From an uncultured Acidobacteriota bacterium (lineage in GTDB: Bacteria > Acidobacteriota > Thermoanaerobaculia > UBA5066 > Gp7-AA6): DNA of 64,000 nt. Numbering within the stretch: the stretch's first letter is position 1; each line of letters starts with the position of its first letter. The notes below the pieces were generated by a model. It was not told the origin of the DNA and made no database searches. It worked only from the letters and a program-made list of their open reading frames with translations. Location of the stretch: contig CAVZNW010000002.1 in NCBI GenBank assembly GCA_963776755.1, positions 163,741 to 227,740 of the forward strand, given 5' to 3'. Of this stretch, positions 29,181-56,855 are shown one piece after another. The position numbers and the translations under genes are program-made.

Positions 29181-31670
29181 CTACTCGCTCCGGAGCGCCG
29201 TCGTCGGGTCGACCCGGCTCGCCTTCCTCGCCGGGAAGAAGCAGGCCGCCAGGGCCACGGACGCCAGCACGGCCGGCACCGACGCGAAGGTCCACGGGTC
29301 GCGCGGGGAGACGCCGTAGAGCAGGGCCGCCATCGCCCGGGTCAGCAGGAACGCGCCGGCGAGGCCGAGCGCGACGCCGAGCGCGGCGAGCCGGCCCCCC
29401 TCGAGCAGGAGCATCCGCTTCACGTCGACCGGACGGGCCCCGAGCGCCATGCGGATCCCGATCTCGCGGGTCCGCTGCGAGACGCCGTAGGCGATGACGC
29501 CATAGACCCCGACGGCCGAGAGCAGCAGAGCCGCGGCGGCGAAGAGGGCCAGCAGCTGCATCGCGAATCGGCGCTCGGCCACGGTCGAGGCCATCGCCTC
29601 GTCCATCGTGCGGACGGCGAAGACCGGCAGCTCCGGATCGAGCGCCCGGACCGCCGCGTCGAGCTGCGGCCCCAGCACCGGGGGCGGCGCCGTGCCGCGG
29701 ACGACGAACGTGAAGAAGGCGCTGGCCCCCTGCAGGAGCGGGCGGTAGAAGGCCGGCTGGTCGTCGAGGGCGAGAGACTCCGACTTCACGTTGCCGACGA
29801 CCCCGACGATCGTCATCCACGGAGGCGGCGCGGCCCCGCCCACGACCTGCCGCTGCAGCGGGCGGCCCGGGAAGCGCAGGCGCCGCCCGATCGGGTCCTC
29901 GCCGGGGAACGCGCGACGGGCGAAGGACTCGCTGACGATGATGACCGGCTCGCCGCCCTCGACGTCCCGGTCGTCGAAGTCGCGCCCGGCCTTGACCGGG
30001 ATGCCGAGTGTCGCGAAGTAGCGCGTCGAGGCGCCCGATCCCAGGGCCACGACCGTGCCGTCGCGCTCGGGGTCGCGGCCCTCGATCTGGAGTCGGGTGG
30101 TGAAGCGGGCCGTGTTGAACGGCACGCGGGTCGCGCCCGCGGCCTCGGTCACTCCGGGCAGCGCCCGGATGCGCTCGAGGGCCTTGCGATAGAAGGCGGC
30201 CTGCGCCGAGTTCTCGTTGTAGCGCCCGTTCTCCCGGATGTCGGGCTGCGGGAGCCAGAGGCTCGCCGTCGTCACGTTCTTCGGGTCGAAGCCGACGTCG
30301 ACCTGCTGCAGCCGCCAGAGCGTGCGCACGAGCAGGCCGGCGCCGACGAGCAGCACGAGCGCCAGGGCGAACTCGGCGACGACGAGCAGGGACCGGACGC
30401 GCTTGCCGCGACGGCCGGAGGCCCCGCGGGAGCCCTCGTTGAGCGCCTCGCCCAGCGCGGGGCCGGAGCCCTGAAGCGCGGGAGCGATTCCGAAGACGAC
30501 TCCCGTCAGGATCGACGCTCCCAGCGTGAAGAGCAGGACGGCGCGGTCGATCCGCACCTCCGGGAGCCGCAGCAGGCTCGCGGGCGAGAGCCGCATGAGC
30601 AGGTCGACGCCGAAGGACGCCACGGCGAGCCCCAGCGCGCCGCCCGCGAGTCCGACGACCAGGCTCTCCGTCAGCAGCTGCCGCACCAGGCGCGCGCGGG
30701 AGGCGCCGAGCGCCTGCCGCACCCCGATCTCGCGCCGCCGCGCCGAGGCCCGCGCGAGCTGCAGGTTCGCGACGTTGGCGCAGCCGATCAGGAGCACGAG
30801 ACCGACGGCCGCCAGCAGAACGACGAGCGCCGGGCGCACGGCGCCGACGAGGTCGTCCTGGAGTGCGTAGAGGCGCGGCGTCCAGCCGTCGTTCTCGGGA
30901 TAGTCGCCGGGAAATTCGCGGCGCAGCTCCGCCGCCACGGCGTCGAGTCGCGCCTGCGCCGCGGCCGGCGTGACGCCCGGCTTGAGGCGCGCCAGCGCTC
31001 CCTGGAGGAAATACGCCCGGCGGTTCGGCCCCTGGAACGGAGGGCCGAGCCAGCCCGAGGGCGCCCAGACCTCGACGTCGGTCTCGATCACCCTTCCGGG
31101 ATGGCGGAAGCCCGGAGGCAGGACGCCGACGATCGTGCACAGGTCGTCGTCGATGCGCAGCGGCTTGCCGATGACGTTCGGGTCGCCTCCGAACCGGCGC
31201 CGCCAGAAGCCGTCCGAGAGGACGACGAAGTCGGCGATGCCGGGGTCGTAGTCCTTCTTCTCGAAGAGCCGCCCGACCTGGGCCTTGACCCCGAGGATGT
31301 CGAAGTACTCGACGTCGACGAGCAGCGTCTCGACGCGCTCGGGCCGGTCGCCGCCGGTGACGTTGGCCGTGATGGGGTAGAGCCCCGACATGGACGAGAA
31401 GACGCCGGCCCGCTCCCGGTAGTCGAAGAGCTCGGGCGCCGAGAGGCCGACGTCGGCGGCGCCGCGGCGCGAGAAGTCCGAGGTGACGCGGACGAGCTCG
31501 CCGGCGCGCTCGAAGGGCAGGGGCTTCAGGAGCACCGCGTTCACCACCGAGAAGATGGCGGCGTTGGCGCCGATCCCGAGGGCGAGCGTCGCGATCGCGA
31601 CGGCCGCGAAGCCCGGGCTCTTGCGCAGGGTCCGGAGGGCGTAGCGCAGGTCCTGTCCGAGGGTCGTCAT
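29181..31670 (-). CDS. ADOP-type duplicated FtsX/MacB-like permease (array member 11, last)
   Basis: MTTLGQDLRYALRTLRKSPGF. FtsX blocks LIGCANVANLQLARASARRREIGVRQALGASRARLVRQLLTES and [27 protein letters not shown]-terminus FPARKASRVDPTTALRSE. I prefer ATG 31670 (GGGAG ribosome-binding site, 13-nt gap) over the longer ORF start at 31703. Confidence 0.9.
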   Translation of the reverse strand: MTTLGQDLRYALRTLRKSPGFAAVAIATLALGIGANAAIFSVVNAVLLKPLPFERAGELVRVTSDFSRRGAADVGLSAPELFDYRERAGVFSSMSGLYPITANVTGGDRPERVETLLVDVEYFDILGVKAQVGRLFEKKDYDPGIADFVVLSDGFWRRRFGGDPNVIGKPLRIDDDLCTIVGVLPPGFRHPGRVIETDVEVWAPSGWLGPPFQGPNRRAYFLQGALARLKPGVTPAAAQARLDAVAAELRREFPGDYPENDGWTPRLYALQDDLVGAVRPALVVLLAAVGLVLLIGCANVANLQLARASARRREIGVRQALGASRARLVRQLLTESLVVGLAGGALGLAVASFGVDLLMRLSPASLLRLPEVRIDRAVLLFTLGASILTGVVFGIAPALQGSGPALGEALNEGSRGASGRRGKRVRSLLVVAEFALALVLLVGAGLLVRTLWRLQQVDVGFDPKNVTTASLWLPQPDIRENGRYNENSAQAAFYRKALERIRALPGVTEAAGATRVPFNTARFTTRLQIEGRDPERDGTVVALGSGASTRYFATLGIPVKAGRDFDDRDVEGGEPVIIVSESFARRAFPGEDPIGRRLRFPGRPLQRQVVGGAAPPPWMTIVGVVGNVKSESLALDDQPAFYRPLLQGASAFFTFVVRGTAPPPVLGPQLDAAVRALDPELPVFAVRTMDEAMASTVAERRFAMQLLALFAAAALLLSAVGVYGVIAYGVSQRTREIGIRMALGARPVDVKRMLLLEGGRLAALGVALGLAGAFLLTRAMAALLYGVSPRDPWTFASVPAVLASVALAACFFPARKASRVDPTTALRSE

Positions 31671-31683
31671 GGCCGTTCTCCCT

Positions 31684-34191
31684 TCAGTCGCCCCGGAGGG
31701 CATCGAGCGGATCGATCCGGGCGGCCCGCCGGGCCGGCAGGTAACCGGCGGCGAGCGCGACCGCGGCCATCAGCGCGATGCCGCCGGCGAAAACGAGCGG
31801 GTCCGAGGCCTTCACTCCGAAGAGGATCGACTCGATGACCCGCGCCAGCGCCCAGGCCGCGGGCAGCCCGATCGCCGCCCCGATCGCGAGGAAGCGCCCG
31901 ACCTCGGAGAGGACGAGGCGGCGCACCGCGGACGGGTCCGCCCCGAGCGCCATCCGCACGCCGATCTCGCGCCGCCGCTCCGCGACCGAGAACGCGAGGA
32001 CGCCGTAGATGCCGATCGCGGCGAGCAGCGCCGCGAGCCCGCCGAAGGCGACCGACAGCAGGAACACGAGCCGCTCGGTCAGGAGCGACTCGCGGATCTG
32101 CGTCGTGAGCGTCTTGACGTCGAAGACGGGCAGCTGGGAGTCGAGCGCGGCGACGGTGCTGCGGGCCGCGGGCGCGAGCCGGTCGGGCGGCAGCTCGCCG
32201 CGGAGGTAGAAGGTGAGCGAGCCCAGGTTCGGGTCCTGCAGGTAGGGCGTGAAGGCGAAGGGATGCTGCGGCTCGCCGACCTGCCCGCCCTTGCTGTCCC
32301 GGACGACGCCGACGATCTCGACGTCGGGCGCCCCCTCGCCCCGGCCGATGCCGAGACGCTCGCCGATGGCGGAGCGCCCGGGGAAGAATTTGCGCGCCAT
32401 CGTCTCGTTGACGATCGCGACCGGGGTCGAGCGCAGGTCGTCCTCGAACCGGAACTCCCGGCCGGCGGAAAGCGGGACGCCGAGCGTCGAGAAGAACGCC
32501 GGGCCGACGTGGTTGCGCCAGACCTGGAGGCCCTTGGTCTGCTCGTTGTCGGGACCGGAGGTGCGCACGTTGGTCGTCTCGTCGCTCCCGGTCATCGGCG
32601 CGACCTCGGCGGCCGAGACCGATCGAACGCCCGGCGAAGCGGAGAGCGTCTCGGTCAGGCGGCGGACGAACGCCGCGGTCCGCTCCGGGGAATAGCCGTT
32701 GGACTCCGGCGCGACCGAGAAGGACAGGACGTTGTCGGGCTTGAGTCCCAGGTCGACGCGGCCGAGGTTGGCGAGGCTCTTCGTGAAGAGACCGGCGGCG
32801 ACGAGCAGCACGAGCGTCAGGGCGACCTGGGCCGTGACGAGCCATCCGCGCATGCGGATCGCCTCGCGTCCGGCGCTCGCGCCGCGGCTCTGGCCGCGGA
32901 GCGTCCGGGCCGGGTCGAGGCGCGACGCGCGGTAGGCGGGACCCACGCCGAAGAGGATGCCCGCGACGAGCGCCAGGACGGCCGTGAAACCGACCACCCG
33001 CGGGTCGATCGAGACGGCGACCTGCCGCAGGTCGGCGTCCGGCGGAAACGCCGAGAGCAGGGCCGTCAGCGTCCAGGCGGCCAGGGCCAGGCCGAGGGCT
33101 CCGCCGGCGACGGAAAAGGTCAGGCATTCGACGACGGACTGGCGCAGCAGCTGCCGGGGGCTCGCGCCGATCGCGAGGCGGATGCCGTATTCGCGCTGAC
33201 GGGCGACCCCGCGTGCGGCGAGCAGCCCCGCGAGGTTCGAGCAGGCGATCAGGAGCACGAGGCCGACCATCCCCATCAGCGAGAGCAGCGGCGTGCCGAG
33301 GCCCTGGCGAATGTTGGCGCGGCCGACGCCGCCCGGCGGGAGCTCGATCCGTCGGTTGAGGAACTCCTTCTTGCGCGTGTCGTCCCAGTTGTTCATCTGA
33401 GGCAGCAGGACCTCGAGGAGCGGTCGGTACGTCGCCGCCAGCGAAGCCTCCGCCGCCTTCCGCGAGAGTCCGGGCTTCAACCGCCCGATCATCTGGAGCC
33501 AGTAGTCCTTGGGGCTTTCCAGCGTCTCCTGGAACGGAGTCATGCCGGCCTTCATCGCGAGCGGGACGAAGAGGTCCGCGCGGCGCCCCGGCTGGACGCC
33601 CGAGAACACCGGAGACGCCACGCCGACGACCGTCAGCGACTGCCCGTTGACGACGATCGTCTTGTTGAGGATCGACGGGTCGCTGCCGAACCGCCGGACC
33701 CAGTAGCCGTGCGACAGGACGGCCAGGGGATGCGCGCCGGGGGCCCGGTCGTCGTCGGGTGAAAGGACCCGGCCGAGGGACGGCGGCACGCCGAGGACGC
33801 CGAAGTAGTTGCCCGAGACGAGCTCCCCGGACGCCCGTTCGGTCGCGCCGCGGGCCGCCACGCTCGCCGCGAACGGATACACCCCGAGGAGGCCCGCGAA
33901 CACCTCGTTCTTGTCGCGCAGGTCGCGGTACATCGGGTAGGAGAACGAGAAGGCGTCGTCGCCGTCGCTCCAGGTGTGGCCCTGCCGGGGGCCGGGCGAG
34001 CGCAGGAGAACGAGCTCTCGCGGCTCGCGAACCGGCAGCAGCCGGAGCATCACCCGGTCGACGAGCGCGAAGATCGCGGCGTTGGCGCCGATCCCGAGCG
34101 CGAGCGTCGCGATCGCGGCGGCGGCGAAAGCCGGGCTCTTGCGAAGGGAACGCAGCGCGTAGCGCAGGTCCTGGAGCAGGGCGTTCATCAT
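31684..34191 (-). CDS. ADOP-type duplicated FtsX/MacB-like permease (array member 10)
   Basis: MMNALLQDLRYALRSLRKSPAF. LIACSNLAGLLAARGVARQREYGIRLAIGA and IGIYGVLAFSVAERRREIGVRMALGA. C-terminus LPARRAARIDPLDALRGD. ATGA overlap with the upstream stop (34188-34191). Confidence 0.9.
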   Translation of the reverse strand: MMNALLQDLRYALRSLRKSPAFAAAAIATLALGIGANAAIFALVDRVMLRLLPVREPRELVLLRSPGPRQGHTWSDGDDAFSFSYPMYRDLRDKNEVFAGLLGVYPFAASVAARGATERASGELVSGNYFGVLGVPPSLGRVLSPDDDRAPGAHPLAVLSHGYWVRRFGSDPSILNKTIVVNGQSLTVVGVASPVFSGVQPGRRADLFVPLAMKAGMTPFQETLESPKDYWLQMIGRLKPGLSRKAAEASLAATYRPLLEVLLPQMNNWDDTRKKEFLNRRIELPPGGVGRANIRQGLGTPLLSLMGMVGLVLLIACSNLAGLLAARGVARQREYGIRLAIGASPRQLLRQSVVECLTFSVAGGALGLALAAWTLTALLSAFPPDADLRQVAVSIDPRVVGFTAVLALVAGILFGVGPAYRASRLDPARTLRGQSRGASAGREAIRMRGWLVTAQVALTLVLLVAAGLFTKSLANLGRVDLGLKPDNVLSFSVAPESNGYSPERTAAFVRRLTETLSASPGVRSVSAAEVAPMTGSDETTNVRTSGPDNEQTKGLQVWRNHVGPAFFSTLGVPLSAGREFRFEDDLRSTPVAIVNETMARKFFPGRSAIGERLGIGRGEGAPDVEIVGVVRDSKGGQVGEPQHPFAFTPYLQDPNLGSLTFYLRGELPPDRLAPAARSTVAALDSQLPVFDVKTLTTQIRESLLTERLVFLLSVAFGGLAALLAAIGIYGVLAFSVAERRREIGVRMALGADPSAVRRLVLSEVGRFLAIGAAIGLPAAWALARVIESILFGVKASDPLVFAGGIALMAAVALAAGYLPARRAARIDPLDALRGD

Positions 34192-36647
34192 TCGCTCCTC
34201 AGGGCGGCCATCGGCTCCACGCGAGCGGCGCGCTCGGCGGGCACGGCGCTGGCGGCGAGCACCGCGGCGGCGAGGATGGAGGCGGCGGCGGCGTACGAAA
34301 GCGGATCGAGAGGGGAAACGCCGAAGAGAAGTTGAGCGGCCAGGCGCGAGGCGGCGGCGGCGGCGGCAAGGCCCGCGGCCAGGCCGAGGATCGCGATCCG
34401 GGAGCCGCGCCGGAGGACGAGGCCTCGCACGTGCGCCTTCTGCGCCCCGAGGGCCATCCGGATTCCGAACTCGCGCGTGCGCGCCTGGGTCGCGTACGAG
34501 ACGACGCCGTAGAGCCCGGTCGCCGAGAGCAGCAGAGCCAGCAGGCCGAAGGCGCCGACGAGGAGCGCGATCAGCCGGCTCTGCCCCAGGGCGAGGCCGA
34601 GCTTCTCCTCCAGCGTGCGGACGTGGAAGAGCGGAAGTCCCGAATCCAGACCGGCGACGGCCTGCGCCAGGGGTCCCGCCAGGGCGGCGGCATCGGTCTT
34701 CGCGTCGAGGAGGATCGTCATCCGGGGCATGTAGAACTGGGACAGCGGGACGTAGACCGTGGGATCCGGCGCCCGGCGCAGGCTGCGGAAGCGGACGTCG
34801 CGCACGACGCCGATCACTTCGCCGCCGACCCCGGGAGGCCCGAGGTTCATGATGCGGCGGCCGACCGGATCGACGCCCGGCCAGAACTTGCGCGCCATCG
34901 CCTCGCTGACGATCGCGACCGCGGGGCCGTCGGCCCTGTCGCGCGCGTCGAAGTCGCGGCCGGCCACCAGTCGCGCGCCGAGCGCGGAAAAGAAACCGGG
35001 CGTGACGATGTTGAGGTCCGCCTGCGGGATCTCGTCGGGAGCGGGCGTGTACCCGTCGCTCTCGATGGAGGTCCGCATGCCCGCGCTCTGCACGGGCGTC
35101 GTCCGGGCGAGGGCCGCGGAGCCGACGCCGGGGATCGCGCGCACGCGCTCGAGCAGCTCCGCGAACAGGGCGGAGCCCCGAGCGCGGTCGTAGCCCTGGC
35201 GGGCCAGGTCGAGCGACGCCTCGAGCCGCCCGGCGGGATCGAAGCCCGGATCGACGGCGGCCTCGCGCGCCAGCGTGTGCGCCGTCAGGCCGGCGCCGAC
35301 GAGGAGAACGGCCGTCAGCGCGATCTGGCCGACGACGAGCGCGTCGCGCAGGCCGAACCGCGGCCGGCCGGCCTGCGGCCCCGAGCCCTTGATCGAGGTC
35401 AGCACGTCGATCCGGCCTCCGCGCAGGGCCGGCACGAGCCCGGAGAGGACGGCGCACGCGAACGCCGCGGCCGCCGCGAAGGCGAGCGCGCGCAGGTCGA
35501 GCACGGAGGTCGCCGCGCCCATCGGGAGCGCGAACTCGGGAGGCACGAGCGCCGCGAGCAGGTCGCCGCCCCAGATCGCGAAGACGAGGCCGGTCCCGGC
35601 CGCCAGCGTCGCGAGCAGCAGACTCTCGACGAAGAGCTGCCGCGCGATCTGCCGGCGGGAGGCGCCGAGGGCGACCCGAACGCCGATCTCCCGCCGGCGC
35701 CGCTCGGCGCGCAGGAGCAGGAGGCCCGCGGCGTCCGCGCAGGCGATCAGGAGCACGAGACCGGCCATCCCCACGAGGAGCCAGGACAGGCGGCGCGCCT
35801 CGTCGCGGGAACTCGGGCCGACGGCGAAGTCGCCGGCCGGGAGGACCTTCGCCATGGGGTCCTGATGGTCCTTCGCCTGGCCCAGCGCCCGGCGCTTCGC
35901 AATCGTGTCGAGCTCGGCCTGCGCGGTGGCGGCGGACACGCCGGGCTTCAACCGCGCGACGACGTCGAGCCAGGAGAGGTTGCGGCCGGTCAGGACCTTG
36001 TCGTCGGCGAACTCGGGCAACGCGCGCTCGACCATCGCGATCGGCACCCACACGTCCGGAAGGCTGTCGAGGCTGACGCCCGTGAACTCGGGGCGCGCCA
36101 CGCCGACGACGACGTACGGGTGGCCGTTCAGATGGACCGTCGAGCCGACGATTCGCTCGTCCGACCCGAAGCGTCGGGCCCAGAGGCGGTGACTGACGAC
36201 GGCGACGGGGCTCGCGCCCGGCGCGGCGTCGTCGGAAGCGGAGAGCAGCCGGCCGCGTTCCGGTCGCGCGCCGAGCAGCTCGAAGAAGCTCCCGCTGACG
36301 AGGGCCCCCGTCACCCGCTCGGGCTTCCCGCCGGTCGACAGGTGGAAGGCCTCGGAATCGTCGAAGGCCGCCATCCCGGCGAACGCCGACGCGCCGTCGC
36401 GGTAGTCCGTGAAGACCGGATACGAGTGGTTGTAGAGCTCCTGCCCCTTCTCGTCGGTCGCCCAGATCCGGACGAGCGAGGCCGGGTCGCGCACGGCGAG
36501 CGGCCGGAAGAGGACCGCGTCGACCGCCGAGAAGATGGCGACGTTGACGCCGATCCCAAGGGCGAGCGTCAGGATCGCGAGGGCCGCGAAGCCGGGGCTC
36601 TTCTTCAGCGTGCGGGCGGCGAAGCGGAGGTCCTGGAGCAGACTCAT
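34188..36647 (-). CDS. ADOP-type duplicated FtsX/MacB-like permease (array member 9)
   Basis: 819 aa. MSLLQDLRFAARTLKKSPGF. LIACADAAGLLLLRAERRRREIGVRVALGA and [27 protein letters not shown]-terminus VPAERAARVEPMAALRSE. Confidence 0.9.
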   Translation of the reverse strand: MSLLQDLRFAARTLKKSPGFAALAILTLALGIGVNVAIFSAVDAVLFRPLAVRDPASLVRIWATDEKGQELYNHSYPVFTDYRDGASAFAGMAAFDDSEAFHLSTGGKPERVTGALVSGSFFELLGARPERGRLLSASDDAAPGASPVAVVSHRLWARRFGSDERIVGSTVHLNGHPYVVVGVARPEFTGVSLDSLPDVWVPIAMVERALPEFADDKVLTGRNLSWLDVVARLKPGVSAATAQAELDTIAKRRALGQAKDHQDPMAKVLPAGDFAVGPSSRDEARRLSWLLVGMAGLVLLIACADAAGLLLLRAERRRREIGVRVALGASRRQIARQLFVESLLLATLAAGTGLVFAIWGGDLLAALVPPEFALPMGAATSVLDLRALAFAAAAAFACAVLSGLVPALRGGRIDVLTSIKGSGPQAGRPRFGLRDALVVGQIALTAVLLVGAGLTAHTLAREAAVDPGFDPAGRLEASLDLARQGYDRARGSALFAELLERVRAIPGVGSAALARTTPVQSAGMRTSIESDGYTPAPDEIPQADLNIVTPGFFSALGARLVAGRDFDARDRADGPAVAIVSEAMARKFWPGVDPVGRRIMNLGPPGVGGEVIGVVRDVRFRSLRRAPDPTVYVPLSQFYMPRMTILLDAKTDAAALAGPLAQAVAGLDSGLPLFHVRTLEEKLGLALGQSRLIALLVGAFGLLALLLSATGLYGVVSYATQARTREFGIRMALGAQKAHVRGLVLRRGSRIAILGLAAGLAAAAAASRLAAQLLFGVSPLDPLSYAAAASILAAAVLAASAVPAERAARVEPMAALRSE

Positions 36648-36656
36648 CTCGTCACC

Positions 36657-39086: not shown

Positions 39087-39101
39087 CGTGATCCTCGATC
39101 C

Positions 39102-39776
39102 TCAGTCGTTCACGATCCAGCCGTCGCGCAGCCGGACGACGCGGTTCCCGAACGTGGCGTTCTCCTCGGAGTGCGTCACCTGGACGATGGTCGTGCCCTC
39201 GTCGTTCAGCTTCTTGAAGAGCCGCATGATTTCGCGGCCCTGGTCCGAGTGGAGGTTGCCGGTCGGCTCGTCGGCCAGGAGCAGCTTCGGCTTCGCGATG
39301 AGCGCCCGCGCCACGCCGACGAGCTGCTGCTGTCCGCCGGAGAGCTGGTTGGGGAAGAGGTCCTTCTTGCCGACGATCTGGAAGCGGTCGAGCGTGTCGG
39401 CCACGATCGAGGCGCGCTCCGAGCCCTTCACGTTGCGGTAGGAGAGCGGGATGTCGAGGTTCTCGGCGACCGTGAGGTTGTCGAGCAGGTGGTACTGCTG
39501 GAAGACGAAGCCGACGTACTTCTTGTTGAGCTCGATGCGCTCGCGGGGCTTAAGCGAATGGACCTCGTGCTCGAGCAGGCGGTATCCGCCGCTCCAGTCG
39601 TGGTCGAGCATCCCGAGGATCGAGAGCAGCGTCGACTTGCCGGCGCCCGAGGGGCCCATGATCGTCACGAACTCGCCCTGGGCGATCGAGAGGTCGATGC
39701 GGCGCAGCAGGAAGGTCTGGCCGGCGCGGGTCGCGACGGCTTTCTCGACGCTGGTCAGCTGGATCATGTTGTTCAT
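39102..39776 (-). CDS. ABC transporter ATP-binding protein, MacB/LolD type (second ATPase, embedded mid-array)
   Basis: 224 aa. Walker A GPSGAGKST, Q-loop VGFVFQQYHLL, signature LSGGQQQL, Walker B LLLADEPTGNLH, H-loop VTHS. The ATG overlaps the upstream permease stop (ATGA 39773-39776). Confidence 0.9.
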   Translation of the reverse strand: MNNMIQLTSVEKAVATRAGQTFLLRRIDLSIAQGEFVTIMGPSGAGKSTLLSILGMLDHDWSGGYRLLEHEVHSLKPRERIELNKKYVGFVFQQYHLLDNLTVAENLDIPLSYRNVKGSERASIVADTLDRFQIVGKKDLFPNQLSGGQQQLVGVARALIAKPKLLLADEPTGNLHSDQGREIMRLFKKLNDEGTTIVQVTHSEENATFGNRVVRLRDGWIVND

Positions 39777-42217: not shown

Positions 42218-42222
42218 CCCGC

Positions 42223-49504: not shown

Positions 49505-51933
49505 TCGCTCCTCAGGGCGGTCATGGGATCGATCCGGGACGCTCGGCGCGCCGGCAGGTACGCGGCGCCGAGGGCGCAGAGGAGAAGCAGCGCCGTCACG
49601 GCGAAGAAGGTCACCGGGTCCGAGGGAGAGATGCCGAACAGGAATCCCCGCAGGAGACGCGCGACCACGGCGCCGAGAGCGACGCCCACAACGAGACCAA
49701 TGGCGACGGGGCGGGCGCTCTGCGCGACGACGAGGGCGCGCACGTCGGAGGACCGCGCGCCGAGGGCCATGCGGATCCCGATCTCGCGCGTGCGCCCCGC
49801 CACGGCGTACGAGATCACGGCGTAGATGCCGATGGCCGCGAGGGCGAGCGCGAGGAGCCCGAAGACGCCGAGAAACGCCGAGCCGAGGCGCTGGGGCACG
49901 AGCTGGCCGCCGATCTCCGCCTCGTAGGTCCCGGTGGCGGCGACGGGAAGGCTCGGATCGAGCCTCCGGATCTCCGCCCGCACGATCGAGGCGACGTCCG
50001 TCCGCGCGGACTGGCCGCGGGCGACGAGAGTCACGAGGCCCGCGTTCTCCGCGCCCTGCGCCAGAGGGAAGTAGACCTGGGGAACGGGGCCGTCGCGAAG
50101 CGACCCGGTGCGGAAGTTCCGTGCGACGCCGACGACCGTCCGCTGCGCGCCCGCGATGTCGATGCGGTGCCCGAGCGCGCTTTCGCCGGGCCAGACGCGC
50201 CGGGCCATGGCTTCATTGACGACGGCGACCATGTTCGATCCCGCCCGATCGAGGCGGTCGTCGAACTCGCGGCCCTCCACCATGGGGACTTCCATCGTCC
50301 GGAAGAAGTCCGCGCCAAGGAGGTTGATCTCGGCCTCTTCCGGCCGATCCGGGGGCGCCGGCCGGCCCGGAACCGAGAACGATTCCGTCCACTGGCCTCC
50401 GGACAGCGGAACGAGCCCCGCCCAGCTCGCCGCGCGCACGCCGGGCGAGGCGGCGACGCGCTCGCGCAGGTCCCGAAAGAAGGCCTCCGCTCTGGCGCCG
50501 TCGTAGCGCTGGAGCCCGGGATCCACGGACGCGAGCGTGAGCCCGCGCGGCTCGAAGCCGAGGTCGGTCGCGAGCGCGCGCTGGAGGCTTCGGGCGAGCA
50601 GTCCCGCAGCGACGAGCAGCAGCAGACACAGCGAAATCTGGGCGGCCACCAGCACGCCGCGGGCGGCCGACCGCGGCGAGGCCGTCGAGGCGGAGGCCTT
50701 GAGGACCGAACCCACGGAACGGCCGGACGCCTGCAGCGCCGGGAGGAGGCCGAAGGCGAGGCCGGTCGCGACCGAGAGCAGGAAGGCGAAGCCGAGGGCG
50801 CGCAGGTCGAGCGCCGGCGCAAAGACCGCCAGCGAGAAATCGCCGGGCAGCGGCATCTTCACCACGAAGGCGAGCGACCAGGTCGCGACGAGCAGTCCCG
50901 CGGCCCCGCCCAGGACGGAGAGCGTGACGCTCTCGGTCAGGAGCTGGTGAACGAGGCGCGACCGGCTCGCGCCGATCGCCTGGCGGACCGCGATCTCCTT
51001 CCGGCGCGCGGCCGCCCGCGCCAGGAGCAGGTTGGCGAGGTTGGCGCACGCGATCGCGAGCGACACCGCGACGGCGCCGACGAGGAGCGCCAGGAAGGAC
51101 ACGGGGTCGCCTTCCTGCCCGAAGCCGGCGGCCGCCCGAAGCGTCGGACGGAGAGTGAAATGCGAATCGGCGCCGAGGTCGTCCGGGAATGCGGCCGCCT
51201 CCTGGCGGGTGGCGACTTCGACGGCCGCCTGCGCCTGCGGGATCGAGACGCCGGGCTCGAGGCGTCCGACAGCGGAGAGCCAGCCCCAGCCTCGCCTCTG
51301 AAGGTCGAGTCGCTGAAACTGTCCGGTCGCCAGCCGCGGCCAGACGCCGATCGAGACCCACAGGTCCGGGGCCGCCCCGAAGGCGGTTCCGCGAAACCCC
51401 TCGGGCGCCACGCCGATCACCGTGAACGGAGCGCCGTTCAACCGGATGGCCTTCCCGACGATCGCGGGGTCCGAGCCGAACCGGCTCCTCCACAGGCGTG
51501 CGGCGAGCACGACGTTGGCCTCGCCCGACTCTTCGTCGGCCGGCGCGAGGAGACGGCCGGATGCCGGCCGTGCGCCGAGCAGGTCGAAGTAGTTTCCGGA
51601 AACGATGCCGCCGCGGATCCTCTCGGCGACGGCGCCGACCGACAGGCTCATCGATCGCTCCCGCCATGCCGCGAGGCCGTCGAGGCTTCCCGCCGTGGCG
51701 TCGCGCAGCGAGCGGTACGACGGGTAGGAAAGGGTCGGTCCGGACAGGTCCACGAGCGCCTCGGGCCGCGCCACGCCCGGGAGCGGATGCAGGACCACCG
51801 CGTCGACGAGGCTGAAGATCGCCGTGTTCGCGCCGATGCCGAGCGCCAGGATCAGGACGGCCGCGGCCGTGAAGCCGGGGCTGCGGCCGAGCGTCCGGAG
51901 GGCGTAGCGGAGGTCCCGGAAGAATGTGCTCAT
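49501..51933 (-). CDS. ADOP-type duplicated FtsX/MacB-like permease (array member 3)
   Basis: Start taken at ATG 51933 (MSTFFRDLRYALRTLGRSPGF); the longer ORF start at 52059 would overlap the upstream gene. AIACANLANLLLARAAARRKEIAVRQAIGA and [27 protein letters not shown]-terminus LPARRASRIDPMTALRSE. Confidence 0.9.
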   Translation of the reverse strand: MSTFFRDLRYALRTLGRSPGFTAAAVLILALGIGANTAIFSLVDAVVLHPLPGVARPEALVDLSGPTLSYPSYRSLRDATAGSLDGLAAWRERSMSLSVGAVAERIRGGIVSGNYFDLLGARPASGRLLAPADEESGEANVVLAARLWRSRFGSDPAIVGKAIRLNGAPFTVIGVAPEGFRGTAFGAAPDLWVSIGVWPRLATGQFQRLDLQRRGWGWLSAVGRLEPGVSIPQAQAAVEVATRQEAAAFPDDLGADSHFTLRPTLRAAAGFGQEGDPVSFLALLVGAVAVSLAIACANLANLLLARAAARRKEIAVRQAIGASRSRLVHQLLTESVTLSVLGGAAGLLVATWSLAFVVKMPLPGDFSLAVFAPALDLRALGFAFLLSVATGLAFGLLPALQASGRSVGSVLKASASTASPRSAARGVLVAAQISLCLLLLVAAGLLARSLQRALATDLGFEPRGLTLASVDPGLQRYDGARAEAFFRDLRERVAASPGVRAASWAGLVPLSGGQWTESFSVPGRPAPPDRPEEAEINLLGADFFRTMEVPMVEGREFDDRLDRAGSNMVAVVNEAMARRVWPGESALGHRIDIAGAQRTVVGVARNFRTGSLRDGPVPQVYFPLAQGAENAGLVTLVARGQSARTDVASIVRAEIRRLDPSLPVAATGTYEAEIGGQLVPQRLGSAFLGVFGLLALALAAIGIYAVISYAVAGRTREIGIRMALGARSSDVRALVVAQSARPVAIGLVVGVALGAVVARLLRGFLFGISPSDPVTFFAVTALLLLCALGAAYLPARRASRIDPMTALRSE

Positions 51934-51940
51934 GGCGTCC

Positions 51941-54419
51941 TCACTCGTTCCGCAGGGCGATGGCCGGATCGATGCGCGTGGCCCGGCGCGCAGGCAGCCA
52001 GCAGGCCACCGCCGCCACGGCGAAAAGAAGGAGCGAAACGGCCCCGTACGTTCCTGCATCGCTCGCGCCCACGCCGAAGAGCAGGCTCGCGAGCAACCGC
52101 GACAGCGCGAAGGCCGCGCCGAGACCGGCGGCGACGCCGATACCCGCCAGCGTCAGGCCGCGCTGGAGCACGCCGCGGAGGATGTCGCCCGGCCTCGCGC
52201 CGAGAGCCATGCGCAGGCCGATCTCGCGCGTGCGGGCGGAGACCGTCTCCGCCACGAGCCCGTAGATTCCGACGGACGCGAGAAAGAGCGCGATGCCGGC
52301 GAGCAGCCCCAGGAGGCCCGCGCCGAAGCGCTCGCGCGAGAAAGTCCGGGCGACGCGCCGTTCCATCGTTGCGACGTCGAAGACGGGCATGTTCGGCGCG
52401 AGCGCCTTGATCTCCCGGCGAATCGCGGGCGCCAGCGCCGCCGGGTCCCCGGAGGTGCGGACGAAGAGCGTCGCCCACTTCAACCCCCCCTGGAAGGACG
52501 GGTAGTAGAGGTCGAGCCCCTGCGGCTCCCCGGGGCGCCCGTAGAGCACGTCGCCGGCAACGCCGACCACTTCGGCGGTCTGGCCGTCGGCGAAGAAGGA
52601 GGTCGTGGCCGCCAGCCGCCGCCCGATCGGGTCCTGGCCGGGCCAGAGGCGGCGCGCCGTCGTCTCGGACACGACGACGACCTTCGGCGAGCCCTCGCGA
52701 TCCTCGGGACGGAAGGCGCGACCCCGGCGGATCGGGATCGAGAGCGCGCGGAAGTAGTCCGGGCTCACGTCGTGGATCCCGATCTGCACCGCGCCCCGAT
52801 CGACGCCGAGCTGCCGGTCGTCCACCTGGCGCACGACGGCGACCATGTTGCGCGAGGAGACGGGGGCAGTCCGGCCGGTCGAGGCCGCGACGACGCCCGG
52901 CACCGCCGCGAGGCGCTCGAGCAGCGCCCGGCGGAAGACGATCGCCTGCGAGCGATCCCCCTCGAGCACTCCGGTCGGGTCGAACTTCATGGTCAGGACG
53001 CCGTCGGGCCGGAAGCCGGACTGATAGCCGGAGAGGCGCGCGAGGCTGCGCGCGAGGAGGCCGGCGCCCACGAGGAGCACGAGCGCGAGCGCGACCTGCA
53101 CGGGGACGAGCAGTCCGCGCGCGGACAGGCGCCGGCGTCCGCTCCCGGCGACGGGAGCCGCCCTCCTTCAGGACCACGGCGAGATCTCCGCGCGAGGCCT
53201 GGAGCGCCGGGGCCATGCCGAAGAGGAGTCCCGTCGCGAGCGAGAGGGCGAGCGCGAAGGCGAGGACGCGCCCGTCGAGATCGATGGCGGCAAAACGGAA
53301 GAGGAAGGAAGGATCGCCGACGCCCGACAGGCGTTCGAGCCGGGACAGCGCCTCGACGCCCCAGAGGGACAGAAGGACGCCGGCCACGCCTCCGGCGACG
53401 GCGAGGACGACGCTCTCGGTCAGCAGCTGGCGCACGATGCGCCGGCGGCCGGCGCCGATGGCCAGGCGGATCGCGACCTCGCGGCGGCGCGAGCCCGCGC
53501 GGGCGAGCAGCAGCGCGGCGACGTTGGCGCACGCGATGAGGAGCACGAAGGTCACGGCGCCGAAGAGGACGAGGACCGAGCGCCGCAGCGCCGGGTCCAC
53601 GCGGCTGTCGTTCAACGGTGCCGCCGTGGCGCTCCAGACCGCCCCGGAGACCTCCATCGGATGCTCGTCGGCGACCTGCTTGCCGACGACCGCCATCTCG
53701 GCCTCGGCCGTCGCGGCGGCGACCCCGGCCCGCCGCCGGGCGACGACGTTGTGCCAGTGATTCCCGTCCTCCGTGAGGATCTCGGGGTAGATGAAGGTCG
53801 GCGCCGTCGCCATCGAGACCCAGATCTGGGCCTCTCCGCTCAAGCCGGCGAACCGCTCCGGCAGCACGCCGACGACCGTCAATGGCACGCGGTTGACCTG
53901 GATCACTCGGCCGAGGATCGACGGGGCGCCCCCGAAGCGGACCTTCCAGAGGCCGTGCGAGATCAGCGCGACGTTCGAGCCCGCAGACCCGTCCTCCTCG
54001 GGCGCGAACGTGCGCCCGAGCTCCGCGGAGACGCCGAGCACCGGGAAGTACGCGGCGGAGACGATCTCTCCCGCCAGCCGCTCGGGCTCGGCGACGCCCG
54101 TGAGGTTCAGGTCGAGCGTCGAGTGGGCCGCGACGGCCTCGAAGGACCGCGCGTGGCGCCGCAGGCTCTCGAACTTGGGATACGACCAGGCGAAGGGCTC
54201 GGCGGGGGTGTTGCTCTCCTGGTGCGTGATCGAAACCGTCATGAGGGCGTCCGAGTCGCGGTAGGGCAGCGGGCGCAGCACCGCGGCGTCGAGGATGGAG
54301 AAGATCGTCGTCACCGTGCCGATGCCGAGCGCGAGCGTGAGGATCGCCACGGCCGCGAAGCCCGGGTTGCGCGCGAGCCAGCGGAAGGCGTACCGGAGAT
54401 CCTGGGCGAAAGTCGTCAT
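51941..54419 (-). CDS. ADOP-type duplicated FtsX/MacB-like permease (array member 2). One apparent +1 frameshift near 53155-53165, between the two halves.
   Basis: MTTFAQDLRYAFRWLARNPGF...[30 protein letters not shown]...DLAVVLKEGG, then junk in that frame. The other frame continues AAPVAGSGRRRLSARGLLVPVQVALALVLLVGAGLL...VGIYGLVAETVSARTREIGLRMALGA...LPARRATRIDPAIALRNE. The span is 3n+1. Confidence 0.85.
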
Positions 54420-54428
54420 GGCGCTCCT

Positions 54429-56855
54429 TCAGTCGTTGCGCAAGACCAGGGCCGGATCGATTCGCGCGGCGCGTCGCGCCGGCAGGGCGCTCGCCGCGAG
54501 CGCGACGGCGGCGAGGAGGGCCGACACCCCGGCGAGCGTCGTGACGTCGAGCGGCGTGACGCCGAAGAGCATGCTCGAGAGCAGCCGGGTGATCGCCGAA
54601 GCGAAGACCAGCCCGATCGCGACGCCGATCCCGGCCAGCCGGGTCCCCCGGCCCACGAACAGCGAGACGATGTCGCGGCGGGCTGCTCCGAGCGCGATGC
54701 GGATGCCGATCTCCCGGCGGCGCTCGCCGACCGCGAAGGCGACGACGCCGTAGAGCCCGACGGCCGCGAGCAGAAGCGCGAGCGCCCCGAAGCCGGCCAG
54801 CAGAAGCGTTCCCTGCCGGCGGCCGGCGGTGGTGCGGCGCAACGCCTCCTCGAGGGTCTCCGCCTGGAAGAGCGGCATCGTCGGGTCGAGGCTGCGGGCG
54901 GCGGCCCGCACCGCGCCCGAGAGCTCCTTCCCGCCGGAGCCCCGAACGAGAAGGATGTTCTCGTTCAGGTGCGCGCCCTGAGCCAGCGCGAAGTACGCGA
55001 ACGGCCGCGCCGGTTCCGTGAGGCTCAGATACTTGCCGTCCTGGGTGACCCCGACCACCTCGAAGCCCTCGCCGGGGCGATCGACGGTCGCGAAGCGCCG
55101 GCCGAGCGGGCTGACGCCGGGCCAGAAGCGCCGGGCGAGCGTCTCGTTGACGACCGCGACGGCCGGCGCGCCCGAGCGATCCGCCGGCGTGAAGTCGCGT
55201 CCCGCGACGAGCGGGATGCCGAGCGTCGCGAAGTAGCCGGGAGAGACCGTGGTGAAGAAGATCTGCTCGCGCGCTTCGGCCCCCCCGCCCTCGGGTGCGA
55301 AGTCGTCGGCGACGGCGCGGTTGGAGAGCGGCAGGAGCTCGGTGAGGGCGGCGGCGCGCACGCCGGGCAGGCTCTTCGCCCGCTCGAGCATCGCCTCGCG
55401 AAAACCCTGGGCGCGCTCGGGCGGGTATCCCTGCGTCACCGGGTCGAACGACAGCGTCACGACGTCTCCCGCCGATGCGCGGTCGAATCCCGCGGGGACC
55501 GCGGCCGCCTTGGCGAGACTCCGCAGGAGCAGGCCGCCGGCGGCGAGCAGCACGAGCGAGAGCGCGACCTGGACGACCACGAGGGAGCCCTGCAGTCGCT
55601 GCCCGGGTCGCCCGGAGCCGCTCGCATCGCCCTTCAGGGCGGCAAAGACGTCGGGGCGAGCCGCGCTCCAGGCCGGGGCGAGGCCGAAGAGGATCCCGGT
55701 CGCGAGCGCGACGGCGGCTCCGTAGGCGAGCAGTCGCCAGTCCACGACCGGCTGGAGCAGCTGCGGGACGTCGAATCGGGAAAGCAGCAGGTCGAGAGCC
55801 CACGACGACAGGAGCAGGCCCGCGGCCGTGCCCAGACCGGCGAGCAGCACGCTCTCGGTCAGGAGCTGGCGAAGAAGGCGCCAGCGGGATGCGCCGATGG
55901 CGACGCGGATTCCCATTTCCCGCCGTCGACGCGCGGCCCGACCGAGCAGGAGATTGGCGACGTTGGCCGAGGCGATCAGCAGCACGAGGCCGGTCGCCGC
56001 GAGCGCCAGCCCCGCCATCGGCAGGATCTCGTACATGTGCCCCGGCGGAACCCAGCCCCGCGGTGTCTCGACCGAAGCCGTCGTGTTCCGCAGGTCGGCC
56101 GGCCGGAGGGAGGCATTGGCTGCCGCCGTCGCCTTCACGGCGGCTTCGGCCTGCGCAGGGGAGACCCCGGGCGCCAGGCGGGCGAGGACGCGGAAGCGGG
56201 CCGACGCGCGGGACGCGAGGCTGCCGGCGCGGTCCGTGCCCGAGAGCCAGGTCTCCAGCGGAAGAAAAACGTCCGGGGGCGAATCGAGGTCGAGGCCGGC
56301 GAATCCCGCCGGTGCGACGCCGAGAACCGTGAAGGGGCGGCCGCTGACGGTCACAGACCGGCCGACCGCGCCGGGATCGGCGCCGAAGCGCCGGCGCCAC
56401 AGCCCGGCCGATATCACGGCGACGGGGCGGCGAGCGCGGTCGTCCTCGGCGGTGAAGAAGGTCCCGGCGGCGGGTACGAGTCCCAGGACCCGGAAGTAGT
56501 CTCCGCCGGCGATCTGAGCCTCGAGGCGGTCCGTCGCGTCGGGGGTGGCGACGTGCACCGGGACGTTGTCGACCGCGGCGACTCCGGCGAACACGTCGGC
56601 ATGTTTCCCGTAGTCCACGACGTCCGGGTACGAGACGCGGGCGGCTCGACCGTCCTCGATGTGCGTGATCCAGAGGAGCCGTGCGGGATCGGCCACCCCC
56701 GGCATCGGCCGGAGAATCATCGCGTTCAGCATCGAGAAGATCGCGGCATTCGCGCCGATGCCGAGCGCGAGCGTCAGGACGGCGACGGCCGTGAAGCCGG
56801 GGTTGCGGGCGATCCCGCGCAGGGCGTAGCGGAGATCCTGCGTGAGCGTCCGCAT
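54429..56855 (-). CDS. ADOP-type duplicated FtsX/MacB-like permease (array member 1)
   Basis: 808 aa. MRTLTQDLRYALRGIARNPGF. LIASANVANLLLGRAARRRREMGIRVAIGA and VGLYGVVAFAVGERRREIGIRIALGA. C-terminus LPARRAARIDPALVLRND. The ATG shares one nt with the ATPase stop (TGATG at 56853-56857). Confidence 0.9.
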   Translation of the reverse strand: MRTLTQDLRYALRGIARNPGFTAVAVLTLALGIGANAAIFSMLNAMILRPMPGVADPARLLWITHIEDGRAARVSYPDVVDYGKHADVFAGVAAVDNVPVHVATPDATDRLEAQIAGGDYFRVLGLVPAAGTFFTAEDDRARRPVAVISAGLWRRRFGADPGAVGRSVTVSGRPFTVLGVAPAGFAGLDLDSPPDVFLPLETWLSGTDRAGSLASRASARFRVLARLAPGVSPAQAEAAVKATAAANASLRPADLRNTTASVETPRGWVPPGHMYEILPMAGLALAATGLVLLIASANVANLLLGRAARRRREMGIRVAIGASRWRLLRQLLTESVLLAGLGTAAGLLLSSWALDLLLSRFDVPQLLQPVVDWRLLAYGAAVALATGILFGLAPAWSAARPDVFAALKGDASGSGRPGQRLQGSLVVVQVALSLVLLAAGGLLLRSLAKAAAVPAGFDRASAGDVVTLSFDPVTQGYPPERAQGFREAMLERAKSLPGVRAAALTELLPLSNRAVADDFAPEGGGAEAREQIFFTTVSPGYFATLGIPLVAGRDFTPADRSGAPAVAVVNETLARRFWPGVSPLGRRFATVDRPGEGFEVVGVTQDGKYLSLTEPARPFAYFALAQGAHLNENILLVRGSGGKELSGAVRAAARSLDPTMPLFQAETLEEALRRTTAGRRQGTLLLAGFGALALLLAAVGLYGVVAFAVGERRREIGIRIALGAARRDIVSLFVGRGTRLAGIGVAIGLVFASAITRLLSSMLFGVTPLDVTTLAGVSALLAAVALAASALPARRAARIDPALVLRND

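Follow-up and report, generated by a model that had tools for sequence, protein, structure and literature searches.

We describe here an operon of ~32 kb, from the genome of a soil member of the Acidobacteriota, in which eleven ADOP genes, all on the minus strand between positions 29181 and 56855 of the 64,000-nt stretch of DNA analysed (the window), are set in a frame of genes that recurs in related loci. The order is a sigma-54-like promoter, an HlyD-type adaptor, an ABC ATPase (ATPup), seven ADOPs, a second ABC ATPase (ATPmid), four ADOPs, MsrB, an ACT-domain protein, an NtrC-type regulator and a probable kinase (Table 1). The best explanation of this arrangement, to which we assign a probability of about 0.6, is a conserved operon that encodes a MacAB-like (type VII ABC) machine for envelope efflux or extraction and carries the array as variable cargo. 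ADOP stands for 'acidobacterial duplicated orphan permease', and both the name and the original description stress the missing adjacent ATPases. The array departs from this definition of an orphan, as its operon contains two ABC ATPase genes, one of them inside the array. The locus and its relatives name candidate partners for ADOPs, namely one adaptor, two ATPases and one sigma-54 two-component switch, and identify permease number as the variable part of a conserved frame, which makes the question of how ADOPs are powered and controlled a testable one.

Table 1. Features of the operon and of the separate PadR-linked ADOP, with window coordinates; L numbers denote related loci.
Feature	Coordinates	Strand	Evidence and remarks
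Sigma-54-type -24/-12 promoter-like element, TGGCACG-N4-TCGC	58889..58903	-	14 nt upstream of adaptor start codon
Periplasmic adaptor (membrane fusion protein, HlyD/RND_mfp type), 419 aa, GTG start	57615..58874	-	HlyD_3, HlyD_D23
ABC ATPase 1 (ATPup), 249 aa, MacB/LolD/DarD-like	56855..57604	-	PF00005; top NCBIfam: DarD, MacB NBD, LolD
ADOP permease P1, 808 aa	54429..56855	-	TIGR03434 835.8 bits; 2x MacB_PCD, 2x FtsX
ADOP permease P2, frameshifted near 53153	51941..54419	-	Repaired protein: TIGR03434 899 bits
ADOP permease P3, 810 aa	49501..51933	-	TIGR03434 855 bits; orthologues in L001, L003, L008, L006
ADOP permease P4, 809 aa	47075..49504	-	TIGR03434 878 bits
ADOP permease P5, 804 aa	44649..47063	-	TIGR03434 903 bits
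ADOP permease P6, 805 aa	42223..44640	-	TIGR03434 965 bits; copy chosen for structure model
ADOP permease P7, 814 aa	39773..42217	-	TIGR03434 816 bits; identity 99% (L001), 70-88% (L002-L005, L008)
ABC ATPase 2 (ATPmid), 224 aa, within array	39102..39776	-	PF00005; DarD- and MacB-NBD-like
ADOP permease P8, 809 aa	36657..39086	-	TIGR03434 920 bits; L001 orthologue 99% identity
ADOP permease P9, 819 aa	34188..36647	-	TIGR03434 871 bits; L001 orthologue 98% identity
ADOP permease P10, 835 aa	31684..34191	-	TIGR03434 914 bits; orthologues 64-89% in L001, L003, L005, L006, L008
ADOP permease P11, 829 aa from ATG 31670	29181..31670	-	TIGR03434 961 bits
MsrB (peptide-methionine (R)-S-oxide reductase)	28747..29154	-	PF01641, TIGR00357 above cutoff; 26 nt after P11
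Small ACT-domain protein	28350..28742	-	PF13840, PF21631
NtrC-type response regulator (REC + sigma-54 AAA+ + Fis HTH)	26997..28353	-	Split over two frames near 27930
Probable sensor histidine kinase, C-terminal part out of frame	25900..27154	-	Weak NCBIfam matches (PnpS, AtoS, PhoR)
PadR regulator preceding P12	14412-14762	+	PF03551
Twelfth ADOP (P12), N-terminal 'permease prefix' domain	14775-17438	+	TIGR03434 920 bits; NF038403

The initial annotation had described eleven consecutive open reading frames of identical architecture. Eleven ADOPs are indeed present, but the run is broken between the seventh and eighth permeases by the ATPmid gene, and one of the frames (51930-54419) encodes an ADOP in its first ~420 codons only. 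All eleven proteins, P2 after repair of its frameshift, match TIGR03434 over its full length (profile positions 1-803) with 816-965 bits, against a curated cutoff of 622.3 bits, and a Pfam scan finds in each two PF12704 (MacB_PCD) and two PF02687 (FtsX) domains without a fused NBD. The family placement in the initial annotation is thus borne out, and the sequence motifs that it listed are present in the consensus of the eleven sequences. The ATGA overlaps reported at 34188-34191, 39773-39776 and 49501-49504, and the TGATG at 56853-56857, are likewise exact, and the junction gaps range from -4 to +15 nt; the overlap at 39773 is a permease/ATPase junction, and that at 56853 joins the stop of ATPup to the start of P1. 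An SD-like motif precedes every ADOP start in the array, including the ATG of P11 at 31670 (GGAG 7 nt upstream), for which an alternative start at 31703 would give 840 aa. The tight junctions and SD-like motifs are consistent with the single transcription unit that had been proposed. Scans for sigma-70 promoters and intrinsic terminators inside the operon returned nothing exceeding shuffled expectation. The PadR gene and P12, by contrast with the array, form the usual solitary arrangement outside the operon, and P12 fits the orphan pattern.

The frame of P2 shifts near 53153, and neither the second FtsX block nor the PARRA C-terminus is therefore present in the literal translation of open reading frame 51930-54419 ('829 aa'); the true C-terminal half lies in another frame and ends at 51941, and removal of one base yields a protein of 825 aa. 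The orthologue in L001 is intact and the window is 5 nt shorter there, so a simple homopolymer error is unsupported. The window assembly is indel-rich and contains many split genes. Since so many other genes are split, an assembly error is favoured for P2. It should be emphasized that in this assembly one permease, the NtrC-type regulator and the probable kinase are all frameshifted, which counts against the reading of the locus as a MacAB-like efflux operon. It could also be argued from the split genes and the frameshifted ADOP that the array is an artefact or debris, arising through assembly stutter, recent amplification or the decay of pseudogenes. This explanation is essentially refuted. 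Pairwise amino-acid identity among the eleven paralogues is 35-46%, the longest exact DNA word common to array copies is 30 nt, and a neighbour-joining tree shows that the paralogues are not each other's closest relatives; recent tandem amplification is ruled out by these data. The reading frames of 10 of the 11 ADOPs are intact, with all family-invariant residues present, and the seven paralogues that have positional orthologues in other MAGs are under purifying selection (dN/dS 0.09-0.36). Furthermore, at least ten ADOPs surround the same ATPase in independent short-read assemblies of four samples. Thus, the array is not an assembly artefact. The initial annotation had argued from diverged copies without long identical repeats against both recent amplification and assembly stutter, and on each count the identity matrix, the phylogeny and the related loci sustain its argument.

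The frame of the operon is more constant than its permeases. The module, in which an adaptor, a first ATPase, n ADOPs, a second ATPase, m ADOPs, a regulator and a kinase follow one another, recurs across dozens of contigs, n and m each taking values from 0 to at least 5, and the number of ADOPs per module varies across genomes from 0 to at least 10. Modules with variable permeases were found in Acidobacteriota MAGs, in short-read contigs and in 32 longer metagenome loci; the closest loci are Acidobacteriota MAGs, and homologues of ATPmid are named as Thermoanaerobaculia. The ATPases and the adaptor are more conserved than the permeases (adaptor orthologues show 93% identity in L005 and 74% in L006). 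No orthologue of P4 or P5 was found in the sampled loci. The paralogues are ancient, and the array is a recombination mosaic. The ADOP family itself reaches beyond Acidobacteriota, to Psychroflexus torquis, Dyadobacter and a Woeseiaceae-binned contig. ADOP-like permeases form 74,016 clusters at 50% identity (E<=1e-30), and soil Acidobacteriota and Bacteroidota carry dozens of copies per genome.

With respect to the fold of these proteins, an AlphaFold2 model of P6 (pLDDT 83, pTM 0.75) has as its best full-length match E. coli YbbP (9GE6; Foldseek E 1.8e-20), followed by MacB, LolE and BceB; Foldseek also returns Spr0695, LolC, YtrF and HrtB. Each half of an ADOP aligns with the membrane and periplasmic domains of MacB. 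Together with the hydropathy profile, the model predicts a fused pseudo-dimer of eight TM helices, with two MacB-type domains in the periplasm and a pair of coupling-helix motifs. The modelled FtsX-type four-TM bundle, in which TM1 and TM2 are separated by a periplasmic domain, identifies the predicted fold as that of a type VII ABC (MacB superfamily) permease. Divergence is distributed unevenly along the proteins and peaks in the periplasmic domains, whereas cytoplasmic and membrane parts are conserved: the N-terminal helix and TM1, the coupling helices and the C-terminus retain 58-65% identity among paralogues, against 33% in the periplasmic domains, where omega is also higher in orthologue pairs. 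As YbbP belongs to a lipid-extracting hydrolase complex, and LolE/LolC follow it among the fold matches, the ADOPs might be mechanotransducers or extractors similar to FtsEX, LolCDE and YbbAP, each serving a different periplasmic partner (hydrolases, chaperones, lipid-handling enzymes), rather than efflux pumps. This proposal, which would also fit the lack of an outer-membrane duct gene among the window genes scanned, appears quite improbable to us: an HlyD-type adaptor stands at the operon head, in L076 the module is directly preceded by a TolC-like OEP gene, and the run of permease genes is not interspersed with genes for candidate periplasmic partners.

The adaptor scores 109 bits against TIGR01730, above the cutoff, and gives a weak full-length match to DarC. 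Membership of the darobactin exporter DarBCD was rejected, as the scores fall below the curated cutoffs of NF038008, NF038010 and NF038007 (DarD-like, 247-249 bits against 375; DarC-like, 67 against 450; DarB-like, at most 28 against 700). Both ATPases are closest to the MacB NBD and Spr0694, share 43% identity and have intact Walker A, Q-loop, Walker B with the catalytic Glu, signature and H-loop. ATPup displays the canonical motifs LSGGQQQR and DEPTGNLD. In ATPmid, whose gene lies between the seventh and eighth permeases, Leu replaces the Arg after the signature and His the Asp of the D-loop; these sequences, LSGGQQQ-L and DEPTGNL-H, do not vary among 120 orthologue clusters or in any of the loci. 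In solved homologues the two positions are occupied by R and D.

These features bear on whether the two ATPases act together. The operon could represent two transporters placed head to tail, in which an ATPup homodimer with the adaptor serves P1-P7 and an ATPmid homodimer serves P8-P11, with neither a heterodimer nor sharing between the blocks. Consistent with this view, each ATPase gene directly precedes a permease block and is translationally coupled to its neighbours, most type VII systems have homodimeric NBDs (PMC12646458), and in some loci ATPmid occurs without ATPup. Indeed, ATPmid is solitary in L024, and ATPup is missing from several loci in which the upstream sequence extends over 10 kb; the idea of an obligate adjacent pair is weakened by these loci, and since ATPmid is not always accompanied by ATPup a heterodimer, if formed, need not be obligate. 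We nevertheless consider two separate transporters unlikely. Minimal units comprising adaptor, ATPup, ATPmid, regulator and kinase with no ADOP exist among the metagenome loci, where both ATPases are adjacent and accompanied by a single adaptor; the invariant D-loop His and signature-flanking Leu of ATPmid would be unusual in a self-sufficient homodimer; and block membership is not conserved, since many loci have no ADOP after ATPmid or none between the ATPases.

The genes at the two ends of the operon suggest how it may be regulated. The sigma-54-like element upstream of the adaptor is the sole match in the window, although a single match is not significant alone. The same element and spacing are kept in L005 and L006 despite differing flanks, and 8 of 18 loci have a match of at least 9/11 ahead of the adaptor gene, compared with 1.6% of random 120-nt segments, a 28-fold enrichment. 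Three observations count against the favoured reading: the element is missing or weak in approximately half of the loci; at just 14 nt from the start codon, it would leave the mRNA almost without a leader; and the sigma-54 contact loop of the regulator reads GAFTDA where GAFTGA is expected. The regulator is represented by open reading frames 27370-28353, with Response_reg, and 26997-27878, with Sigma54_activat (2.5e-62) and HTH_8. The same regulator is downstream of the array in L003, L005, L008, L009 and most metagenome loci, and MsrB likewise comes after the array in L003 and L008. The neighbouring protein has no Pfam match, and its assignment as a probable kinase is weak, which also counts against the favoured reading; it has two TM helices separated by a loop of ~10 residues and an H-box (LGHELNN) read from the sequence; its orthologues show 74% identity in L008 and 56% in L009.

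The adjacency of ATPmid, regulator and kinase is the most conserved junction among the metagenome loci. It could be argued from this junction, from the short loop between the two TM helices of the kinase and from the seemingly degenerate residues of ATPmid that this ATPase mainly has a signalling function, reporting transporter activity, together with the regulator and the kinase, to the two-component system as in Bce-type flux sensing, while ATPup alone powers transport. This, too, we view as improbable: Walker A, Walker B with its catalytic Glu, the Q-loop and the H-loop of ATPmid are all preserved, and ATPmid is separated from the regulator by ADOP genes, both in the window and in close relatives of it. 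No ABC ATPase is known to act as a signalling component in such a manner.

Returning to the favoured reading, that of a conserved efflux or extraction operon with variable cargo, each ADOP would bind two ATPase subunits, by analogy with YbbP and its two YbbA subunits, and ATPup and ATPmid may work as an asymmetric heterodimer. All eleven ADOPs would draw on a common ATPase pool and a common adaptor, a sharing that we infer from gene order and conservation only, and solitary ADOPs, such as the PadR-linked one, probably use them too. A common engine would create a family of pumps differing only in the periplasmic, substrate-selecting part. The two-component system would turn the operon on through sigma-54 upon encountering an envelope-active compound. 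The likely substrates are antimicrobial or amphipathic molecules of diverse kinds, which the pumps would remove from the periplasm or outer leaflet via an outer-membrane duct encoded elsewhere; that none of the window genes scanned encodes an outer-membrane factor counts against this reading. The most far-reaching form of the proposal is that ADOPs are not orphans at all, but that a dedicated, conserved and asymmetric ATPup/ATPmid pair and one adaptor constitute the engine for array-borne ADOPs and for those dispersed over the genome behind PadR regulators alike, a sigma-54-induced, combinatorial repertoire of efflux pumps whose permease cassettes would be gained, lost and exchanged by recombination between strains; this we advance tentatively, as a possibility with the odds against it. 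Key to the mechanism are several features that the initial annotation had missed: the adaptor and the two distinct ATPases, the sigma-54 promoter together with the NtrC-type two-component system, and the P2 frameshift. If the engine is indeed shared, this would represent a new principle in the organisation of exporter-type ABC systems, and could help to explain how abundant soil bacteria withstand chemically diverse antagonists.

The initial annotation knew of no comparable system, a view that does not hold, as equivalent arrays are frequent in metagenomes and a 42-kb cluster of ten ADOP paralogues with ATP-binding transporters has been described in genomic island 43 of Psychroflexus torquis, where it is highly translated and its function was left unexplained by the authors (Feng et al. 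2014, PMC3914696). The likeness extends to the same family end to end and to many paralogues beside transporter genes, including ATP-binding ones; unlike that cluster, the Acidobacteriota array is one tight operon with a widely conserved frame of adaptor, two distinct ATPases and sigma-54/NtrC system. Our search of the literature on ADOP, TIGR03434, DUF214 and COG0577 found no functional study. This study suggests how orphan permeases are powered, while similar arrays are common in public data. The best structural match of the ADOPs is the type VII system YbbAP(-TesA) of E. coli (PDB 9GE6-9GE8), whose fused pseudo-symmetric permease has two coupling helices and combines with two ATPase subunits (PMC12646458). 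YbbP, however, has 10 TM helices, is encoded by the only permease gene of its operon, works with one type of ATPase and has TesA as a partner, in contrast to the predicted eight TM helices, two MacB-type periplasmic domains and accompanying adaptor of the ADOPs. MacAB-TolC resembles the array in that ADOP halves align with MacB, the adaptor is MacA-like, the ATPases are near the MacB NBD and, in L076, a TolC-like gene is upstream. MacB, however, homodimerises, its NBD is fused to four TM helices, and a single permease gene encodes it, while the array has separate NBDs of two kinds and a fused eight-TM pseudo-dimer permease in eleven alternatives. The BceAB-BceRS modules of Firmicutes are similar in having a type VII permease with a large extracytoplasmic domain and an adjacent two-component system whose two-TM kinase is nearly devoid of an external loop, but they have just one permease, a regulator of the OmpR type and no adaptor, in contrast to the sigma-54 activator and multiple permeases of the array. 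In group II ECF transporters one EcfAA'T energising module is common to many S components, some of them encoded elsewhere, and this sharing is experimentally established. The resemblance is one of analogy only, a heterodimeric ATPase set serving interchangeable substrate-specific membrane subunits, with sharing established in the one and proposed in the other, and ECF transporters have an unrelated fold and, as importers, the opposite direction of transport. Should the engine of the array prove to be shared, the operon would be the type VII counterpart of these shared-module transporters.

At the 70-75% G+C of the window mechanical open reading frames are unreliable, and genes were therefore placed by third-position GC phase together with homology. 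The ADOP (acidobacterial duplicated orphan permease) array defined in this way comprises eleven genes of 804-835 codons, designated P1-P11 in transcription order. All eleven proteins match the NCBIfam profile TIGR03434 (ADOP family duplicated permease) from position 1-2 to 802-803, with scores of 816-965 bits where the curated cutoff is 622.3, and each contains two MacB_PCD and two FtsX stretches by Pfam, which bears out the family placement made in the initial annotation. The sequence motifs it described are seen in the consensus of the eleven-protein alignment, and its junction coordinates are exact. The same annotation, however, had envisaged eleven consecutive and similar permease ORFs. 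The family likeness stands, but the run is broken by a 224-aa ABC ATPase gene (ATPase 2), and the '829-aa' ORF taken as P2 (51930-54419) is ADOP in its first half only. A tblastn search with P1 and the GC-phase plot agree on a frame switch near 53153, with the true end of the C-terminal half at 51941; deletion of one base yields an 825-aa protein that scores 899 bits on TIGR03434.

Features of the window and their coordinates
Feature	Position	Strand	Remark
TamB	1-2376 / 2330-3925		split, two pieces
Omp85/POTRA protein	3922-4779 / 4694-6937		split, two pieces
PadR gene, then twelfth ADOP (P12)	14412-17438	+	outside array
Molybdo-hydroxylase large subunit; Reg_prop/Y_Y_Y histidine kinase	within 18990-24200		three pieces each
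DUF6265 protein	24292-25188	-	after AraC-type regulator gene
Kinase C-terminus	~25900		out of frame / split
NtrC-type response regulator	26997-28353		out of frame / split
ADOP permeases P1-P11	29181-56855	-	eleven genes
ABC ATPase 2	39102-39776	-	interrupts permease run
ABC ATPase 1	56855-57604	-	directly upstream of P1, 1-nt overlap
HlyD/RND_mfp-type periplasmic adaptor	57615-58874	-	upstream of ATPase 1; GTG start
Two PMT_2-type (ArnT-like) membrane glycosyltransferase genes, NAD-dependent epimerase gene between	59395-63154	+	divergent from operon
FolD	63190-63954	-

From ATPase 1 to P11 the intergenic gaps are -4 to +15 nt, and scans for a sigma-70-like promoter or a terminator inside the operon revealed none that stood out. 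Every ADOP gene starts with ATG, preceded at 3-8 nt by a GGAG/GAGG motif that the gene before it supplies through its conserved C-terminal L-R-S-E codons (for example 49505-49515 and 34192-34202). As this Shine-Dalgarno-like sequence lies within the coding region of the upstream permease, the ADOP C-terminal motif appears to double as a ribosome-binding site in arrays.

Besides P2, six genes in the window are split across frames, encoding TamB, the Omp85 protein, the molybdo-hydroxylase, the Reg_prop kinase, the NtrC regulator and the kinase that follows it. With so many genes divided over two or three frames, an assembly rich in indels, probably one from long reads, is a better explanation than mass pseudogenization, and the P2 frameshift may thus be an assembly error. 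Counting against this view, the P2 region is 5 nt shorter than its intact orthologue in the nearest genome (L001), which does not fit a simple homopolymer slip. The genomes nearest to the window are Microflora Danica MAGs. In the minus-strand segment 24292-25600, which also holds the DUF6265 gene, an AraC-type regulator with DUF6597 shares its open frame with the frameshifted kinase, giving a mechanical 796-aa ORF that fuses two unrelated genes.

It could be argued that in such an assembly the array is itself a stutter, or that it reflects recent amplification. The initial annotation had argued against both, and the data agree. P1-P11 display pairwise amino-acid identities of 35-46%, and no exact DNA word longer than 30 nt is common to any two copies. 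Ten loci, mostly labelled Acidobacteriota MAGs, came from a scan of GTDB species representatives, and the array was found again in such loci with its orientation unchanged. The copies are not each other's nearest relatives where this could be judged: seven permeases (P2, P3, P6, P7, P8, P9 and P10) have positional orthologues (49-99% identity), any paralogue being far more distant, and the dN/dS of orthologue pairs is 0.09-0.36. ATPase 2 is matched at 100% identity by a database entry from a contig of 2.74 Mb, and orthologues at 87-97% identity fall into >120 clusters, several of them named Thermoanaerobaculia. One ATPase 2 orthologue is found on contigs that megahit assembled from the short reads of four ENA samples, flanked on either side by at least five ADOP genes within 10 kb, the array passing both ends of the fetched stretch. 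Thus, the divergence of the paralogues, the existence of orthologues with low dN/dS elsewhere and the independent short-read contigs rule out both assembly stutter and recent amplification.

Against L001, nucleotide identity is 97-99% over P7-P9 and falls abruptly at gene junctions, to 73-82% in P6 and 82-90% in P10-P11 (step region 34176-42175). ATPase 2 has a dS of 0.32, against 0.03 for both flanking genes. These steps, like the gene-sized patch of lower identity over ATPase 2, suggest that genes within the array have undergone recombination or cassette exchange. As L001 also has one unrelated ADOP in place of P4 and P5, the array is, judged from these alignments, a recombination mosaic with gene-sized turnover.

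The frame around the permeases is conserved. Eighty metagenome loci were fetched with ATPase 2 as the anchor, and in the 32 that extend over at least 9 kb the adaptor and ATPase 1 come first, then (ADOP)n, ATPase 2 and (ADOP)m, and last the NtrC regulator and kinase; n and m can each be 0 and reach at least 4. No ADOP is present in three loci, which consist of adaptor-ATPase 1-ATPase 2-regulator-kinase. Across genomes the ATPases and the adaptor are better conserved than the permeases. In one minimal module that lacks an ADOP gene (L076), a gene for a TolC-like outer-membrane efflux protein (OEP, PF02321; 5004-6551 of that locus) lies directly upstream of the adaptor. Three ADOPs, ATPase 2, the NtrC regulator and the kinase, sharing 56-71% of their amino acids with the window proteins, are also encoded on L009, a contig whose bin is assigned to Woeseiaceae, Gammaproteobacteria; either the module was transferred horizontally between phyla or the contig is mis-binned. 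On a further contig (L024, 58% G+C) a solitary ATPase 2 orthologue, 74% identical, occupies 10007-10669, with a DUF2278 gene on one side and genes for amino-acid permeases on the other. Neither the 10 kb upstream nor the ~4.4 kb that the contig extends downstream contains an ADOP, an adaptor or a second ATPase, which makes this gene an 'orphan ATPase', the counterpart to orphan permeases.

On the 3' side of P11 follow, in order, MsrB, a small ACT-domain protein, an NtrC-type response regulator (REC, sigma-54 AAA+ and Fis HTH domains) and a probable histidine kinase whose two TM helices lie about ten residues apart. A sigma-54 -24/-12 type element, TGGCACG-N4-TCGC, lies 14 nt upstream of the adaptor GTG. 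This single match in the window is not significant alone, but the element is kept at the same distance in two related loci (L005 and L006) with different flanks, and an element that matches at 9 or more of 11 positions, GG/GC being mandatory, precedes the adaptor gene in 8 of 18 loci compared with 1.6% of random 120-nt segments. The two-component system may induce the operon through sigma-54. The contact loop of the enhancer-binding protein (26997-27878, minus strand) reads GAFTDA; the usual sigma-54 contact loop is GAFTGA.

The PDB contains no ADOP structure. The two halves of an ADOP can each be aligned to MacB over its membrane and periplasmic domains, and the AlphaFold2 model of P6 (pLDDT 83, pTM 0.75) shows eight long helices together with a pair of alpha/beta periplasmic domains. 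The best full-length match of the model is E. coli YbbP (9GE6, E 1.8e-20), followed by MacB, Spr0695, LolE/C, BceB, YtrF and HrtB, all type VII ABC transporters. In YbbAP two ATPase subunits engage one fused pseudo-symmetric permease via two coupling helices (PMC12646458). Among the eleven paralogues mean pairwise identity is 58-65% in the N-terminal amphipathic helix and TM1, the two R-x-x-E-I-x-I/V-R-x-A-L-G-A coupling regions and the C-terminus, and 33% in the periplasmic domains, where omega between orthologues is 0.14-0.44 versus 0.08-0.27 in the remaining protein. Each ADOP would be a complete membrane unit docking two ATPase subunits, and the eleven would share the operon's ATPases and adaptor, their periplasmic domains differing in what is selected. 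A less likely alternative is that the permeases act in non-efflux roles, as extractors or mechanotransducers.

The two ATPases are 43% identical. ATPase 1 has canonical motifs, whereas ATPase 2 contains LSGGQQQ-L and a D-loop DEPTGNL-H, with Leu and His at positions where ABC ATPases normally have Arg and Asp, as do the solved homologues. Both residues are invariant in 120 of 120 orthologue clusters and in every fetched locus. A heterodimer of ATPase 1 and ATPase 2 is an attractive but unproven explanation; rival readings, less probable than a shared set of ATPases, are two homodimeric systems, or an ATPase 2 that takes part in signalling with the kinase.

The twelfth, plus-strand ADOP has a ~75-residue N-terminal 'permease prefix domain 1' (NF038403), which is present in none of the eleven array copies; database homologues fall into two length classes, ~800 aa and ~880 aa.

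The initial annotation knew of no comparable system and in this respect overrated the locus, as multi-ADOP clusters are already described. Psychroflexus torquis has a 42-kb island in which ten ADOP paralogues, highly translated and of unknown function, lie beside ATP-binding transporter genes (PMC3914696), and Dyadobacter genomes contain 28-33 ADOP copies (PMC11573002). The family is huge, and multi-ADOP clusters are abundant in public assemblies. A literature search found no published description of a conserved frame in which an adaptor and two distinct ATPases accompany a sigma-54 two-component system, of the invariant non-canonical ATPase 2, or of a permease cargo varying from 0 to at least 10 with mosaic turnover. 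P1-P11 are bona fide members of the ADOP family but, unlike its eponymous 'orphans', are not orphans in this operon, and the locus provides a concrete and testable proposal for how ADOP permeases are energized.
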